From Chloroflexota bacterium (lineage in GTDB: Bacteria > Chloroflexota > Dehalococcoidia > Dehalococcoidales > JAZDNC01), in assembly GCA_043800335.1 (NCBI GenBank), contig JAZDNC010000049.1, positions 1 to 63,028 of the forward strand: a stretch of DNA of 63,028 nucleotides, in the 5' to 3' direction. The number at the start of each line of letters is the position of its first letter. The first letter of the stretch is position 1. Below, piece after piece: positions 1 to 27,214 of the stretch. Position numbers and translations under genes: made by a program. Under the pieces are notes generated by a model that had not been told where the DNA came from, made no database searches, and saw nothing but the letters and a program-made list of their open reading frames with translations.

Positions 1-1
1 A

Positions 2-331
2 GCGCTGAAGGATGATGATTTGATTTTCAGTGACCTTGAAGGTAAGCCACTTCTACCGGATACTGTTACCCATGCCTGGATTAAGCTGGTGAGACGTACT
101 GGCTTTAATGGAATCCGCTTGCATGACGCCCGGCATACTCACGCCTCTCTAATGCTAAAACAGGGAGTACACCCGAAAATAGTCCAAGAGAGGCTAGGCC
201 ACGCCAGCATACAGATAACCCTTGATACCTATAGCCACGTAGCCCCTGGACTTCAAGAAGCTGCCGCCGCAGGCTTTGACAAGATGGTGTTACCCATGCG
301 TGAAAAGGTAGCGGTTGAAAACCATTATTAG
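2..331 (+). CDS. Tyrosine recombinase / phage-type integrase, C-terminal catalytic part (5' end outside window)
   Basis: Frame is open from the window edge. HDARHTHASLML...ERLGHASIQITLDTYSHV matches the R/HxxR/Y catalytic box pattern of tyrosine recombinases. Confidence 0.85.
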   Translation, partial: ALKDDDLIFSDLEGKPLLPDTVTHAWIKLVRRTGFNGIRLHDARHTHASLMLKQGVHPKIVQERLGHASIQITLDTYSHVAPGLQEAAAAGFDKMVLPMREKVAVENHY

Positions 332-4243: not shown

Positions 4244-4819
4244 TCAGGAAACGAAGTCCTTGCCTGCCCTGAAAGCCTGTGCGAGCGCACCAGGCACGTT
4301 CTTGATTGCCCCCTTCTCATCCACCCCGGGAAAGAGGAGTGCCCCGGTGTATTTAATGTCAAGCGTGAGGTATAGGGTCTTGACCGTGACCAGAGCCGAC
4401 TCAAAGAGAGAAGTGCTGGTGCCGCCCCTCCCGCTCACGGCGACGAAAAGTCCCTTTCTCTCCTTCCGGTCACCTAAAGGCGGGACTTTAAGCTGGTATT
4501 TACGGCTCCACAGCGCCTGACAGCGGTCAATCATGAGCTTCATCTGGGCGGTAAGCCCCATGAAGTGTAGCGGTGAACCCAGAACTACCCGGTCTGCCTT
4601 CTCCAGCTCGCTGTAAACCATCTGCATGTCGTCCTGGATACGGCACCTGCCCTCTTTCAGACAGGCATCGCAGTGCTGGCAAGGGCTGATTTTAAGGTCA
4701 TTCAGGACGATGAGGTGGGTCTCCGCCTTCTGGCTCTCGGCGCCCCTCAAGGCCTCATTAAGGAGGATTTCGGTGTTACCGCCGCGCCTGGGACTGCCGT
4801 TCAGGGCAAGTAGTCTCAT
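4244..4819 (-). CDS. Flavodoxin-like NAD(P)H-dependent FMN reductase / iron-sulfur flavoprotein family
   Basis: MRLLALNGSPRRGGNTE N-terminus plus a Cys cluster CQHCDAC...C. Confidence 0.75.
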   Translation of the reverse strand: MRLLALNGSPRRGGNTEILLNEALRGAESQKAETHLIVLNDLKISPCQHCDACLKEGRCRIQDDMQMVYSELEKADRVVLGSPLHFMGLTAQMKLMIDRCQALWSRKYQLKVPPLGDRKERKGLFVAVSGRGGTSTSLFESALVTVKTLYLTLDIKYTGALLFPGVDEKGAIKNVPGALAQAFRAGKDFVS

Positions 4820-5316
4820 TCGGCTTCACTCCCCATAGACTCAATAATAGCTTTTTCTCTTAAGCGCATCTTTTGCTCTGCCTCGCTCTCGCCGTGGTCG
4901 TAGCCAAGGATATGGAGCACCCCGTGAATGAGGAGAATGGCTAGCTCCCGCTTGACCGAATGCCCGTGTTCCCGTGCTTGAATTTCTGCCTGCGGGTAGG
5001 AGATGATGACCTCCCCCAGGTGTTTCACGCCGTCGGGGGCAAAGATGAAGACCGGCTCTTCCCCCTTCTTACGCTCCTTGCCACTCACCACCGGCTCGCC
5101 GGGTCTCATGGCGAAGGAGAGGACATCGGTGGGGGCGTCTTCACCCAGGTACTCTTTATTAAGCTCACGGATATGTTCCTGTGTGGTAATAAGGAGTCCA
5201 AGCTCCGAGTTTTCGGGGGCTTTCTCCAGCATGAGGGCGCTGGTGGCGACAGCCTCAAGCCAGGTTGAGTCAAGCTTATCGGCAAACTCTTCATCAATCA
5301 GGATGTTGATTTCCAT
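4816..5316 (-). CDS. ybeY: Endoribonuclease YbeY (rRNA maturation)
   Basis: HGVLHILGYDH zinc motif. Start moved to MEINILIDE (ATG 5316). 4-nt overlap with the downstream gene. Confidence 0.88.
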   Translation of the reverse strand: MEINILIDEEFADKLDSTWLEAVATSALMLEKAPENSELGLLITTQEHIRELNKEYLGEDAPTDVLSFAMRPGEPVVSGKERKKGEEPVFIFAPDGVKHLGEVIISYPQAEIQAREHGHSVKRELAILLIHGVLHILGYDHGESEAEQKMRLREKAIIESMGSEAE

Positions 5317-5392
5317 ATTTAAGATGATAGCATAAAGAGATAAGAAGCTGAAAAAGTGATAGACTATGACCACCAGAATTCAGGAGGATACC

Positions 5393-6103
5393 ATGGGCAA
5401 AAATATAGCCATCGGTATGATAATCTTATTCCTGATTACAGCTAGCTCTTTTCTAGTCAGTTCTTTTTCAGAAATCAGAAATCTCAAAGTTAGTTTGAAT
5501 AACACGACAACGATGCTGGGTGAGATAGCATCTCAACTGGAACAAACAGAGGGCAAACTTACGCAATCCGAGGCTAAATTGGCTCAGACAGAGACCGAGC
5601 TAACCCAAACAAGGAAGGAATTATCCCAAGCAAGAGTGGATTTGTTACAGGCACAGCGACAGTTTGAATCGGAACGTGCTTCATTGACCAAAGCAGCTGA
5701 AGATAACAGATTTTTCTTCTACTACATTAAGGCACAACAGCAGCAATATAGCCTTGATACTCTGGGCTTGCTGATGGATTATTTGTATTGGTTGAAAGAA
5801 TATCAAGCGAACGTGTTTGATTGCAGTGAGATGAGCGCCTGTCTTGAGCATTCGCTTGAGAATTTCGGCTTTCATACCTTAATCGCTGTTGGAAATTCAC
5901 CTGACGGCTCTGCGACAGGACACGCTTGGCTACTTGTCGAAACTGAGCCCAATGCATATATGCCTGTTGAGGCAACCCAACTGTCAGTTGTTTACTGGGA
6001 TAATCCCTATTTCAATAACTATTTTAGGTACGACCGCACTTTCGAGACTATACAAGACGCCTTAATTTATGGCCCAACAGAATTTGACTGGTGGACGTAT
6101 TAG
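5393..6103 (+). CDS. Membrane-anchored coiled-coil protein with transglutaminase-like Cys-His-Glu/Asp domain
   Basis: AGGAGG SD 7 nt before ATG 5393. N-terminal TM helix, Q/E/T-rich coiled coil, then FDCSEMS...GHAWLLVE...PVEAT. AT-richer than its neighbours. Confidence 0.6.
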   Translation: MGKNIAIGMIILFLITASSFLVSSFSEIRNLKVSLNNTTTMLGEIASQLEQTEGKLTQSEAKLAQTETELTQTRKELSQARVDLLQAQRQFESERASLTKAAEDNRFFFYYIKAQQQQYSLDTLGLLMDYLYWLKEYQANVFDCSEMSACLEHSLENFGFHTLIAVGNSPDGSATGHAWLLVETEPNAYMPVEATQLSVVYWDNPYFNNYFRYDRTFETIQDALIYGPTEFDWWTY

Positions 6104-6116
6104 CCCTTACTTGTCA

Positions 6117-6142
6117 GATTGCTTCGCTTCGCTCGCAATGAG
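6117..6142. repeat. Unit-A repeat copy (inverted orientation)
   Basis: gattgcttcgcttcgctcgcaatgag. Confidence 0.7.
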
Positions 6143-6177
6143 TGTTGAAGTTCTACTAACAAATCTAATCACACTTC

Positions 6178-6207
6178 TTGAGCAATTGCTTTTTCTTGTG
6201 TTATATT
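6178..6207 (+). promoter_or_regulatory. Promoter copy upstream of the truncated tRNA-Ser
   Basis: TTGAGC, 18 nt, then extended -10 TGtTATATT (6199-6207). Duplicate of the promoter at 6897-6927. Confidence 0.5.
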
Positions 6208-6215
6208 AAGGACAC

Positions 6216-6296
6216 GGAGGGATCGCATAGTGGTCTAGTGCGGGCGCCTGCTAAGCGCTTACACCGGATAAAAACGGTGTCGTGGGTTTAAATGCC
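6216..6296 (+). pseudogene. Truncated tRNA-Ser(GCU): 5' about 73-80 nt only
   Basis: 6216-6288 is identical to 6936-7008. Similarity decays inside the T-loop, and the 3' T-stem and acceptor strand are missing. Confidence 0.85.
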
Positions 6297-6321
6297 AATT
6301 GTAGTATAATCATATAACTAA

Positions 6322-6543
6322 ATGTTACAGTACTCCGAGCACGCCAAGGAGCGAATGAAGGAGCGAGGTATATCTCAACAGGAAGTAGAGGCTTGTGTTG
6401 AGAACCCTGACCAGAGTTATCCATCTGATGATGACTACGATTGCAGAAACTATATCAAAACGTTTCCCACCGGACGGAGAATACGGGTTGTAATCAATGA
6501 GCAAACCAAACTTGTAATCACGGCAATAGAGCAGGGAGGATGA
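6322..6543 (+). CDS. DUF4258-family putative toxin
   Basis: 73 aa. YSEHAKERMKERGISQQEVE is the characteristic DUF4258 N-terminus. Only 1 nt separates it from the next ORF. Confidence 0.7.
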   Translation: MLQYSEHAKERMKERGISQQEVEACVENPDQSYPSDDDYDCRNYIKTFPTGRRIRVVINEQTKLVITAIEQGG

Positions 6544-6544
6544 A

Positions 6545-6778
6545 GTGAGAATTAAATACGACGCGCAGGCTGATGCTGTATACATATACCTAAGCGATAA
6601 GCCATACGCTTACGGTAAAGACCTTGATGACTCCAGACATATAGACTATGCGGCTGATGGTACGCCAATTGGGATTGAGCTGCTCTGTGTCAAGAAAGGC
6701 GTCAATCCGGAAGACCTCCCCGAGCAAGCTAAGATTATTAGATTATTGGAGCAAAATCGCATCAAGGTCTTTGCCTAG
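6545..6778 (+). CDS. DUF2283-family putative antitoxin
   Basis: 77 aa, GTG start. MRIKYDAQADAVYIYL...IGIELL is the DUF2283 pattern. Confidence 0.7.
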   Translation: MRIKYDAQADAVYIYLSDKPYAYGKDLDDSRHIDYAADGTPIGIELLCVKKGVNPEDLPEQAKIIRLLEQNRIKVFA

Positions 6779-6896
6779 TATCCATTTCCTTTCGTCTTTC
6801 AATCTTTCAATACAACCTTTCAATACAACATTCACAGAGCAAAAGTTCAGACGCCTATTGCCTCGCTCTGAACGATACTCGCACTCGCCTCTCCTT

Positions 6897-6927
6897 CTTG
6901 AGCAGAAAGTTCTGACTGTGTTATATT
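6897..6927 (+). promoter_or_regulatory. Promoter of the intact tRNA-Ser
   Basis: TTGAAG, about 19 nt, then extended -10 TGtTATATT (6919-6927), 8 nt before the mature tRNA 5' end. Confidence 0.5.
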
Positions 6928-6935
6928 AAGGGCAC

Positions 6936-7029
6936 GGAGGGATCGCATAGTGGTCTAGTGCGGGCGCCTGCTAAGCGCTTACACCGGATAAAAACGGTGT
7001 CGTGGGTTCAAATCCCGCTCCCTCCGCCA
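6936..7029 (+). tRNA. tRNA-Ser (anticodon GCU), long variable arm, CCA encoded
   Basis: Acceptor GGAGGGA/TCCCTCC, CUGCUAA loop, variable stem ACACCG/CGGTGT, T-arm GTGGG-TTCAAAT-CCCGC. 94 nt. Confidence 0.93.
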
Positions 7030-7038
7030 CTCTAAATC

Positions 7039-7061
7039 CGCCCCCGGAAGGGGGCGTTTTT
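7039..7061 (+). terminator. Intrinsic terminator after tRNA-Ser
   Basis: cgccccc-ggaa-gggggcg followed by TTTTT. Confidence 0.8.
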
Positions 7062-7071
7062 GTAGGAGAGT

Positions 7072-8340
7072 ATGTCCCGCTACTATATCTGGACAATCGG
7101 CTGTCAGATGAACGAGTCTGAGTCGGAGCATCTGGCTTCCGCCCTCTCAAAGCTCGGCTACGAAGCCGTTACCTCTGCCGATGAAGCCGATTTGGTTATC
7201 CTGAACACGTGTGTCGTCCGGGAGAGCGCCGAGAATAAGGCGGTCAACAAGCTCCACGCCCTCAGGTCCCTGAAGAAGCGTAACCCGGGGGCGGTTATCG
7301 CCCTCACCGGCTGTATGGTTGACGACAACACCGGCGACCTGAAAAAGAGGTTCCCCCACGTGGATTACTTCCTCAAGCCGGGGGACTACCCGGACTGGCT
7401 CAAGCGAGTCACTAAGGAGGAATCTTTACCCGAAAGCCCCCCCGTCTCAAGCTATGTGCCCATCATCCACGGCTGTAACAACTTCTGTAGCTACTGCATC
7501 GTCCCTTACCGCCGGGGGTGTGAGCGCAGCCGTCCCCCTGAAGAAATCGTCGGTGAGGTGAAAGAGCTGGTCAGACGGGGGACGAGAGAGGCCATCCTGC
7601 TGGGGCAGAATGTTGACGCCTACGGGCACGACCTCGCCGGAAAGCCGGAACTGGCTGACCTTCTCACCGAGGTAAGCAGGGTCGAAGGCTTGCTCAGAGT
7701 CCGCTTCCTCACCAGCCATCCCAGCTACATAAGCCTGCGTTTGACTCAGACCATGAGCCATCTGGATAAGGTCTGTAAACAGCTCAGCCTCCCCATCCAG
7801 TCGGGGAGCGACCGCATCCTGAAAGCGATGGGGCGGGGCTATACGGCTCAGGAATACCGTCAGCTGGTTGGGCACATCAGAAGCTATATGCCCGGTATCG
7901 CCCTTTCCACAGATGTCATCGTCGGCTTCCCCGGCGAGAGCGAGGCGGACTTTGCTGAGACGGTTAAAGCTCTCACCGAGATAAAGTTTGACCAGATACA
8001 TGTCGCCGCCTACTCGCCGCGCCCAGGGACTCTAGCGGCAAGGGAGATGGCGGATGACGTCCCGCCGCAAGTGAAAAAAGCCAGATTGAGCCAGATTGAG
8101 ATGCTGGAGGAGCGTATCGCTACTGAGCTCAACGCCGGCTTGATGGGTAAGACCCTTCCGGTGCTGGTGGAGGGCAGGAAGGGCAACCTCTTTTACGGCA
8201 GGACGGGAAGTGATAAACTGGTGTTCTTTAAGGGCGAATCCAGGGATATCGGGCATCTCTTAGACATCAGAGTTACCCGCACCAGTCCCTGGTCGCTCTC
8301 GGGCGTGAAAGTTGAATCAGAGTTGAACGAAGGAGGCTAA
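7072..8340 (+). CDS. miaB: tRNA-i6A37 methylthiotransferase (radical SAM MTTase)
   Basis: N-terminal TIGCQMNESESE, radical SAM CSYCIVPYRRG, C-terminal TRAM-like domain. Confidence 0.85.
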   Translation: MSRYYIWTIGCQMNESESEHLASALSKLGYEAVTSADEADLVILNTCVVRESAENKAVNKLHALRSLKKRNPGAVIALTGCMVDDNTGDLKKRFPHVDYFLKPGDYPDWLKRVTKEESLPESPPVSSYVPIIHGCNNFCSYCIVPYRRGCERSRPPEEIVGEVKELVRRGTREAILLGQNVDAYGHDLAGKPELADLLTEVSRVEGLLRVRFLTSHPSYISLRLTQTMSHLDKVCKQLSLPIQSGSDRILKAMGRGYTAQEYRQLVGHIRSYMPGIALSTDVIVGFPGESEADFAETVKALTEIKFDQIHVAAYSPRPGTLAAREMADDVPPQVKKARLSQIEMLEERIATELNAGLMGKTLPVLVEGRKGNLFYGRTGSDKLVFFKGESRDIGHLLDIRVTRTSPWSLSGVKVESELNEGG

Positions 8341-26462: not shown

Positions 26463-27214
26463 TGGGCATCGTTATCAAGTCGGAGCGGGAGATTGAGGTC
26501 ATGCGGCAGGCGGGTAGAATTGTCGCTGCGGTTCTTGCTATACTGGCTAAGGAAGTAAAGGTAGGGATGAAGACCAGAGAGCTTGACGTAATCGCCGAAA
26601 GGGAAATCAGGGCAAGGGGCGGTGTGCCCTCGTTCAAGGGCTATCACGGCTTCCCGGCGAGTCTCTGTGTCTCCATAAACGATGAGGTGGTGCACGGCAT
26701 CCCCGGTGATAAGGTGATTAATGAGGGCGATAAGGTCTCCCTTGACTTAGGGGCAATCTATCAGGGGTTTCAGGGTGATGCCGCCGTCACCGTCGTGGTG
26801 GGGAAGGCGGGTGCCGTAGCTAAGGCGCTGGTTCAGGCGACCGAGGGGGCTCTCTATGCCGGGATTGAAGCCGCCAGGGCCGGCGTCCATCTGGGCGATG
26901 TCTCCGCCGCCATCCAGCACCACGCCGAGGCCTGCGGTTTTGCGGTGGTCAGGGAGTACACCGGACACGGCATCGGGCGTAAGATGCACGAAGAACCGCT
27001 CATCCCTAACTTCGGTGAGTCGGGGACGGGGCCCGTGCTCAGGAAGGGGATGGCGCTGGCGCTGGAGCCCATGCTCAACGCCGGTAACTGGCCCACAAGG
27101 GTGGGTAGCGATGGCTGGGTGGTACTTACCGCCGATGGCAGTCTCTCGGCACACTTTGAGCACACCATCGCCATCACCGATGACAGAGCCGAGATTTTGA
27201 CAACTCTGGCGTGA
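26462..27214 (+). CDS. map: Methionine aminopeptidase type I
   Basis: [11 protein letters not shown]...G..GD, YTGHGIG, EPM...G. Confidence 0.94.

Follow-up and report, generated by a model that had tools for sequence, protein, structure and literature searches.

A toxin-antitoxin-like gene pair between a truncated and an intact copy of tRNA-Ser(GCU) in a Dehalococcoidales genome: a probable insertion scar

A repeated promoter and tRNA 5' part around two small genes

The window analysed here is the whole of a 63,028-nucleotide (nt) stretch, contig JAZDNC010000049.1 of assembly GCA_043800335.1 (Chloroflexota bacterium; Dehalococcoidales; JAZDNC01), and the feature under study is a pair of small genes, encoding a DUF4258 and a DUF2283 protein, that lies between a truncated and an intact copy of tRNA-Ser(GCU). 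The assembly is of metagenome type and comprises 1.44 Mb in 94 contigs. Repeat search and alignment revealed a single long direct repeat in this region, 6174-6296 versus 6894-7016, which is 123 nt long and 90% identical at a spacing of 720 nt, and which contains a promoter and nt 1-73/81 of tRNA-Ser(GCU). The features of the locus, all on the + strand, are as follows.

6174-6215, + strand: left tRNA promoter, the displaced one on the interpretation given below; -35 element TTGAGC at 6178-6183, extended -10 element TGTGTTATATT at 6197-6207, predicted start at about 6214
6216-6296, + strand: truncated tRNA-Ser(GCU); nt 1-73 equal to the intact gene, then six of eight matches across the T-loop
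6297-6321, + strand: junction stretch with 16% G+C and a TATAAT at 6305-6310
6322-6543, + strand: gene for a DUF4258 protein of 73 amino acids, predicted BECR-fold ribonuclease (RNase) toxin (Pfam 1.7e-14)
6545-6778, + strand: gene for a DUF2283 protein of 77 amino acids, presumed antitoxin or regulator (Pfam 7.5e-13)
6779-6893, + strand: non-coding stretch upstream of the right promoter, with two exact tandem 13-mers CTTTCAATACAAC (6804-6829) and a weak match to a dispersed host repeat at about 6857-6881
6894-6935, + strand: right promoter, serving the intact tRNA; -35 at 6898-6903, -10 at 6922-6927
6936-7029, + strand: intact tRNA-Ser(GCU) (ARAGORN and Rfam, 53.4 bits), the sole copy in the genome-wide tRNA list
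7039-7064, + strand: intrinsic terminator, a hairpin at 7039-7056 followed by a T-run

Position-by-position comparison places the longest exact block at 6213-6288 and 6933-7008 (76 nt), which contains the identity of tRNA nt 1-73 (6216-6288 and 6936-7008) noted in an earlier, sequence-only reading of this DNA; a 123-nt repeat with a core of this kind is far beyond chance. That reading had also described a duplicated promoter with a diverged spacer, and this is what we observe: the two copies have the same -35 block CTTCTTGAGCA and the same extended -10 block TGTGTTATATTAAGG, and the mismatches fall at 6185-6189, 6192 and 6194-6196 (nine of the 12 promoter-spacer positions), with three more at 6212, 6289 and 6294. 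Beyond 6296 and upstream of the -35 element the copies cannot be aligned. Both promoters score equally in a consensus promoter scan (TTGAGC-18-TATATT with TG), and throughout the order tRNA-Ser(GCU) is preceded by the conserved motif TTGAGC(A)-N-TGnTATAnT, so that both copies in the window look like real tRNA promoters. Comparison by eye with the promoter spacers of relatives singled out neither copy as the native one.

The left tRNA copy retains the 5' strand of the T-stem and a T-loop with one change, has GCCAA in place of CCCGC, and is without the 3' T-stem and the 3' strand of the acceptor; identity breaks off inside the 7-nt T-loop (6287-6293), and the stub-side junction reads GGGTTTAAATGCCAATTG. 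ARAGORN and Rfam called only 6936-7029 as a tRNA and did not call the left copy. On folding, the right copy adopts a cloverleaf at -43.3 kcal/mol (z -3.97), and the left stretch gives no cloverleaf (z -0.64). The claims that the left copy fails in the T-loop, that the right copy is complete and that a terminator follows it are thus all borne out. A terminator scan of 5200-7300 found no terminator-like site other than the hairpin at 7039-7056. The variable arm ACACCGGATAAAAACGGTGT is lineage-specific: it is the same in both copies and absent from the aligned tRNAs of 17 relatives, and exact scans for it in metagenome and genome contig sets gave zero matches.

The DUF4258 and DUF2283 open reading frames (ORFs), separated by 1 nt, are the only genes between the tRNA copies, as the sequence-only reading had stated, and both are single-copy in this genome. 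They show the layout of a type II toxin-antitoxin module, with two small, adjacent, co-directional genes of which one has a known toxin fold. The AlphaFold2 model of the DUF4258 protein (predicted local distance difference test score, pLDDT, 90.6) has as its top PDB matches the CdiA-CT toxin of E. coli NC101 and BrnT (Foldseek probability 0.98-0.99), and it also matches the toxin of a Salmonella toxin-antitoxin system; the set of three spans probabilities of 0.93-0.99 and template-modelling (TM) scores of 0.64-0.67. There is in addition a weak Pfam match to Colicin_E5. The model of the DUF2283 protein is poor (pLDDT 63). PDB sequence searches with both proteins returned nothing significant, exact protein look-ups found no record of either, and a word-based protein search gave just three homologues of the toxin. 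DUF4258 has been classed among the BECR-fold RNase toxins with no member characterised (PMC11980606; bioRxiv 10.64898/2026.08.28.747851), and DUF2283 is a domain of FseA, an excision regulator of an integrative and conjugative element (PMC4755241). We presume the cassette to be a type II toxin-antitoxin-like pair with predicted toxin and neutralising activities. It resembles the type II modules with RelE/ParE-like or colicin-like BECR-fold toxins in its small co-directional genes 1 nt apart, its toxin fold and its movement between genomes as a unit. It differs from them in its partner, since a DUF2283 protein is unlike the classical antitoxins, and in gene order, the window pair being toxin-first whereas DUF4258 modules are tabulated as antitoxin-first. 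The TATAAT at 6305-6310 lies 11 nt before the ATG at 6322, just as had been pointed out, and no Shine-Dalgarno sequence precedes this ATG; the DUF2283 gene starts with GTG, and a strong ribosome-binding site, GGGAGGA, lies 5 nt upstream of this codon. Within the DUF2283 gene there is also a 16-nt inverted repeat (94% complementary) at 6614-6629 and 6760-6775, its arms 130 nt apart and the second ending at the stop codon.

Empty sites, foreign composition and portable cassettes

Relatives supply the empty site that the sequence-only reading had anticipated, a single tRNA-Ser(GCU) beside miaB. In 40 relatives the tRNA gene is single and just upstream of miaB, with ybeY 0.4-1.1 kb upstream of the tRNA on those contigs that include it, and none of the 19 loci fetched from them contains the gene pair or the stub. 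The 80 metagenome loci located through MiaB agree, in that one tRNA-Ser(GCU) precedes miaB with no stub and no such pair; none of these exceeds 62% MiaB identity, and neither a closer relative nor a polymorphism of occupancy was seen among them. A tRNA scan of 363 genomes of the order returned the window's own stub as the sole mid-contig 5' fragment of tRNA-Ser(GCU). Second 5' copies in three genomes (G238, G155 and G003) were rejected, as their contigs are broken within one gene (ybeY|tRNA and tRNA|miaB); those at contig ends in three others (G169, G219 and G242) were taken as the same breakage, the ybeY side not being seen there.

The surroundings of the locus, and the left flank in particular, are made up of the following.

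4816-5373, - strand: ybeY (Pfam YbeY 4.2e-37), conserved left flank; in relatives 0.4-1.1 kb upstream of tRNA-Ser(GCU)
5393-6103, + strand: AT-rich accessory ORF with a membrane anchor, a coiled coil and a C-terminal domain (G+C content 0.425; G+C at third codon positions, GC3, 0.44)
6117-6141, + strand: 25-nt repeat dispersed in the host genome, GATTGCTTCGCTTCGCTCGCAATGA, here in a perfect copy shortly before the left promoter
7072-8340, + strand: miaB (Pfam UPF0004, Radical_SAM and TRAM), conserved right flank; directly downstream of tRNA-Ser(GCU) in most relatives

An AT-rich zone spans approximately 5250 to 6900. GC3 is 0.44 in the ORF at 5393-6103, 0.47 in the toxin gene and 0.50 in the partner gene, against 0.73 in miaB and 0.63 in ybeY. 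The AT-richness of the left-hand gene had been remarked on before, together with the suggestion that this tRNA is an insertion hotspot, and the wider comparison supports the latter as well. The ORF at 5393-6103 is single-copy in this genome and has homologues in seven of 60 relatives, at other loci; it is a separate accessory insertion into the same intergenic space. In relatives, the gap between tRNA-Ser(GCU) and miaB contains varied accessory genes (L054, L050, L070, L045, L083, L036 and L104), which encode DpnI-like endonucleases, an N6/N4 methylase with a MutH-like endonuclease, HIT and GIY-YIG proteins, GrpB, or a GIY-YIG protein alone. No tRNA fragment borders the accessory genes in this gap. 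Their variety near tRNA-Ser(GCU) indicates that the neighbourhood is a recurrent landing place.

The GATTGCTTCGCTTCGCTCGCAATGA repeat has 34 copies in the genome with at most three mismatches, and many other genomes of the order share its core at 100% identity. One of its reading frames gives DCFASLAM, and the repeat is frequently intergenic, beside tRNA promoters and homologous toxin-antitoxin cassettes.

The pair itself, DUF4258 gene then DUF2283 gene, recurs in the same order in six other contexts at 60-79% identity, with the DUF2283 gene (73-79% identical) always directly downstream. Two of these are short contigs, one (L022) with its own promoter, a leader and a Shine-Dalgarno sequence, and the other (L024) with neighbouring genes that could be assigned to no family. 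In three more the pair stands amid housekeeping genes: between hisI and hisF (L025), between etfA and an EF-G-like gene (L112), and adjoining other housekeeping genes (L113); no tRNA gene lies closer than about 4 kb to any of these three, and an integrase was not seen nearby. In the sixth (L023/L140) it lies inside an element with an excisionase-like helix-turn-helix protein, an 870-amino-acid protein and an integrase, where three GGTTAGCAATT repeats and then, at the contig end, the 3' end of a tRNA come after the integrase gene. The sequence-only reading had proposed that the pair might be met beside an integrase elsewhere, and this element provides the case. The recurrence in six contexts, the L140 element among them, identifies the pair as a portable module that is sometimes cargo of tRNA-integrating elements. 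The genomes carrying the nearest DUF2283 relatives are labelled Dehalococcoidales or Chloroflexota. Nucleotide similarity of the window to these cassettes is limited to the two ORFs (6321-6777) and starts only at 6321-6331, and the window cassette is without the promoter, leader and Shine-Dalgarno sequence seen in L022. A direct-repeat search around the homologous cassettes found only short host-repeat matches, and scans of viral contigs with the tRNA 5' part, the DUF2283 alignment and the tandem 13-mers returned nothing. In L112, a Dehalococcoidales metagenome-assembled genome, the cassette lies between two 21-nt pieces of another dispersed repeat, GCTTCGCCCCTCTTAAACGCC (4509-4529 and 5397-5417).

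A 5'-displacing integrase family in the order

A genome-wide search for tRNA fragments revealed a second 5' stub in this genome (G000), C50:617-655, which corresponds to nt 1-39 of tRNA-Ser(CGA). The intact tRNA-Ser(CGA) is at C94:26943-27030, directly 3' of a broken integrase gene (C94:27050-27634) in the same reading direction. The motif TGTGACCATTyyGTGACCA occurs at two sites genome-wide, approximately 120 nt after the C50 stub and approximately 65 nt before the intact tRNA-Ser(CGA); by their position these would be the arm-type sites on the two attachment (att) arms. C50 and C94 are a decayed example, within this genome, of an element that displaces the 5' part of its target tRNA. The stub side (C50:480-655, L132) runs into an IS3-type transposase at the contig end, and the broken integrase is fused in frame to an NHL-repeat stretch (C94:26943-28244, L133). 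On the same contig, the interval from tRNA-Ser(GGA) to tRNA-Ser(CGA) (C94:26079-27030) contains a DUF5652 membrane-protein gene, a 21-nt copy of the tRNA-Ser 3' end (26614-26634) and a GIY-YIG gene, and looks like a small scar of the 3' type.

The family of the C94 integrase is present in 59 of 121 genomes of the order. Layouts were counted on its 30 best loci (L141-L170), in 26 of which a tRNA gene lies 47-133 nt past the integrase stop codon. In 15 of these 26 the integrase is upstream of and co-directional with the tRNA (Ser-CGA, Ser-UGA or Arg-UCG), and in the remaining 11 the two are convergent, which is the textbook layout. Far-end stubs of the targeted tRNA, mid-contig and ending at nt 38-43, were found in five genomes, and confirm the co-directional group as 5'-displacing.

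G004 (L171; two contigs, 100% complete by marker genes), C2:881946-885502: tRNA-Ser(CGA), stub of nt 1-39, element of 3.6 kb with an M78-peptidase protein, a DUF4411 protein and the integrase
G333 (L172), C49:84954-91353: tRNA-Arg(UCG), stub of nt 1-38, 6.4 kb, with GTTAGCAAA repeats on both arms
G103: tRNA-Ser(UGA), stub of nt 1-39, 22.6 kb, same contig
G018: stub of nt 1-42 on the opposite strand, 34 kb away
G342: stub of nt 1-43 on another contig

Duplication of the 5' half of a tRNA is the normal footprint of one integrase family in this order. The sequence-only reading had seen the 5'-half layout correctly; its description of that layout as unusual does not hold for these genomes. Both layouts of the family occur in a single genome, since the integrase fragment nearest to our locus (window 1-331), 72% identical to the C94 integrase, faces the tRNA-Met gene at 403-477 in the convergent, textbook arrangement. 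The integrase of the L140 element has the same domain architecture as the C94-type family, with GGTTAGCAA-type arm repeats.

A passage of PMC8371274 that cites Williams 2002 describes the 5'-displacing layout as unique to pTN3-like integrases in archaea and "seldomly encountered in bacteria", and gives the T-loop as a canonical crossover position of tRNA-targeting integrases. The filters of Islander admit a 5' fragment upstream of the tRNA gene (tDNA) as a minority configuration (PMC4383910). The locus shares with the displaced-5'-fragment islands treated in these sources a same-orientation 5' fragment upstream of an intact tRNA with foreign DNA between them, a rebuilt gene expressed from insert-derived sequence, and a breakpoint in a tRNA loop. 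It differs from them in that its unit has no integrase, measures only 0.72 kb and has a replacement promoter homologous to the displaced one. Set against Islander-type criteria, the locus has an intact tDNA with a same-orientation 5' fragment upstream, a breakpoint at a canonical sublocation, and an insert that is absent from relatives and compositionally foreign; the integrase expected between fragment and tDNA is missing, and only the DUF4258 and DUF2283 genes are there.

The integrase elements of the order (G004, G333 and C50/C94) are closer comparisons. Like the window unit, they insert 5' of class II (Ser) or Arg tRNAs, can have toxin-antitoxin-like cargo (DUF4411 with an M78 peptidase in G004, the DUF4258/DUF2283 homologue in L140), and have short tandem repeats 60-130 nt upstream of the rebuilt tRNA. 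Unlike it, they keep the integrase beside the tRNA, G333 and C50/C94 have GTTAGCAA-type or GTGACCA-type arm repeats on both arms, and G004 and C50/C94 have only tRNA nt 1-39 in common with the host. The locus departs from this anticodon-loop family in that its stub reaches nt 73-81 and its tandem 13-mers are on the tRNA side only. Cis-mobilizable elements (CIMEs) of the Streptococcus thermophilus ICESt1/ICESt3 type have both att sites complete, and their cognate integrase is known. The locus is similar to them in having an att-like direct repeat around a short, recombinase-less cargo; unlike a CIME, its stub-side arm looks incomplete, and no integrase for this site was found in the genome.

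Origin of the scar and its rivals

On balance, and with some reserve, we favour the view that the feature is an insertion scar in the single-copy tRNA-Ser(GCU) gene, left by a decayed tyrosine-integrase element of which the addiction module alone was retained. Foreign AT-rich DNA would have entered at the T-loop from the 5' side and brought along a second tRNA promoter together with tRNA nt 1 to about 80. The incoming 5' part and the resident 3' end would together have formed the working gene at 6894-7029, and the resident promoter and 5' part would have been displaced 720 nt upstream to become the dead stub at 6174-6296. The element responsible probably belonged to the minority, 5'-displacing type of tyrosine-integrase elements that is common in this order, and it may later have lost the integrase and the stub-side arm, with the self-stabilising DUF4258/DUF2283 pair staying behind. 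Most likely, then, the scar is of an uncommon but known type. Because tRNA-Ser(GCU) is single-copy, any insertion into the gene had to rebuild it, and the observed order fits 5'-displacing integration: resident promoter and 5' part, crossover, insert, promoter and 5' part of the insert, crossover, resident 3' end. The left copy adjoins the perfect GATTGCTTCGCTTCGCTCGCAATGA repeat; in G333 a related repeat is found just upstream of the host tRNA-Arg promoter, and the parallel is consistent with the left copy being the resident one. The sequence-only reading had likened the locus to an att-site scar, and the empty site, the dead stub and the foreign composition now stand behind that comparison; the agency of an integrase at this particular scar is what we infer. 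The position of the break in the T-loop, a canonical crossover site, counts in its favour, as do two analogies. The tandem 13-mers CTTTCAATACAAC sit 107-132 nt upstream of the intact tRNA, a position comparable to that of the arm-type repeats of the verified elements, which lie at approximately 64-95 nt in G004, G333 and C94, and a homologue of the pair is cargo of the L140 element. The 13-mers form part of a longer series of tandem 13-nt repeats at 6800-6838 (CAATCTTTCAATA / CAACCTTTCAATA / CAACATTCACA, with CTTTCAATACAAC exact twice), and the genome has no further exact copy of CTTTCAATACAAC.

Several observations weigh against an integrase-made scar. There is no integrase gene between the repeats, and none acting on the T-loop of tRNA-Ser(GCU) was found anywhere; the verified 5'-displacing elements of the order all have their crossover in the anticodon loop rather than the T-loop. 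In G004 and C50/C94 the identity block is confined to the tRNA part, whereas the similarity in the window spans the -10 and -35 blocks. The stub side has nothing like arm-type sites, and the 3' T-stem half-site is not kept (GCCAA versus CCCGC). The identical variable arm means that the second copy came from very close kin or from this genome itself, or was later homogenised, and the mosaic of shared promoter blocks with nine differences in the 12-nt spacer requires that the repeats underwent gene conversion with each other or that the donor region was orthologous. The missing integrase, the T-loop breakpoint and the atypical promoter homology together make integrase-free recombination a serious rival.

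That rival could take the form of an import from a very close relative in which the pair lay upstream of its own tRNA-Ser promoter, an explanation that we consider unlikely but one to be reckoned with. One end would have entered by homology in the tRNA 3' part or miaB and the other by microhomology-guided illegitimate joining in the resident T-loop, giving the duplication in one step; a Campbell-type single crossover of a circular fragment would have the same outcome. The similarity between the copies reaches the promoter, and possibly a decayed host repeat further upstream, as an orthologous upstream region would give and as the elements of G004 and C50/C94, sharing only the tRNA part with their host, do not. 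The imperfect junction match of six in eight (TAAATGCC versus CAAATCCC) is typical of microhomology joints, and the common lineage-specific variable arm, the bare cassettes amid housekeeping genes in L025, L112 and L113, and the restriction of nucleotide similarity with these to the two ORFs also suit an import. It would, however, make the breakpoint exactly in the T-loop a coincidence; the donor layout is present in none of approximately 440 related loci, and nine spacer differences between identical flanks misfit a donor that shares the variable arm, unless gene conversion followed. A local tandem duplication of the promoter-tRNA unit, with the left 3' end lost through cassette insertion or deletion and the tRNA parts kept identical by gene conversion, would likewise account for the 76-nt exact block, the near-identical -10 and -35 blocks and the variable arm, and two full copies of tRNA-Ser(GCU) are present in three genomes of the order (G143, G121 and G178). 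These copies, however, are on different contigs in genomes with contamination of up to 7%, and a tandem pair occurs in none of the approximately 440 loci. With at least two events and a lucky truncation point required, copies that cannot be aligned upstream of the -35 element and a spacer saturated with differences, we regard such a duplication as improbable. An assembly artefact, in which the contig threads an empty site and a circular or variant molecule through the shared repeat, is suggested by the 94-contig metagenome-type assembly and by the frequent breakage of relatives' contigs within tRNA-Ser(GCU). We hold it to be very improbable: the exact repeat measures only 76 nt, with mismatches at 6212 and 6289, and should be spanned by ordinary 150-nt reads; each of the two junctions must in any case be present in some molecule, and a 0.72-kb circle would be without replication functions.

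A bolder interpretation, to which we give little credence, is that the 0.72-kb unit, though integrase-less, remains usable as a cassette and belongs to an undescribed 5'-displacing system specific for the T-loop, with an integron-like tRNA capture site and the displaced tRNA promoter as its expression signal. If this were true, cassettes would each arrive with a tRNA promoter and 5' part of their own, and toxin-antitoxin expression would be tied to the growth-rate control of tRNA promoters. The stub leader, in which the anticodon and variable arms are kept, might then also serve as a cis-acting stabiliser or as a decoy for the RNase toxin.

As a probable remnant of a decayed integrase element, the locus illustrates how a small addiction module can persist in an essential single-copy tRNA locus after its carrier has decayed, and it contributes a T-loop case to a class of insertions that has rarely been documented, those in which the front of a tRNA gene and not its back is replaced. 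The side result is possibly weightier: in one integrase family of a small-genome order the 5'-displacing layout accounts for more than half of the 26 tRNA-linked loci counted, set against a literature in which it is seldom reported from bacteria. Such cases would escape island finders that are set to look for 3' fragments and for an integrase.

With the two promoters not separated by any terminator, transcription from the displaced tRNA promoter should continue through the stub into the toxin gene, the partner gene and the tRNA. As far as the sequence allows prediction, transcripts from about 6214 should begin with the stub as a 108-nt structured leader, followed by toxin, partner and tRNA, and the TATAAT at 6305-6310 could give rise to a second, near-leaderless toxin transcript. 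Each promoter spacer has its own palindrome directly 3' of the -35 element, a perfect 10-mer on the left (AGCAATTGCT, 6182-6191) and CAGAA-AG-TTCTG on the right (6902-6913). The 12-nt patch with these palindromes is the sole strongly diverged part of the repeat, and the palindromes could be due to chance or be operator sites.

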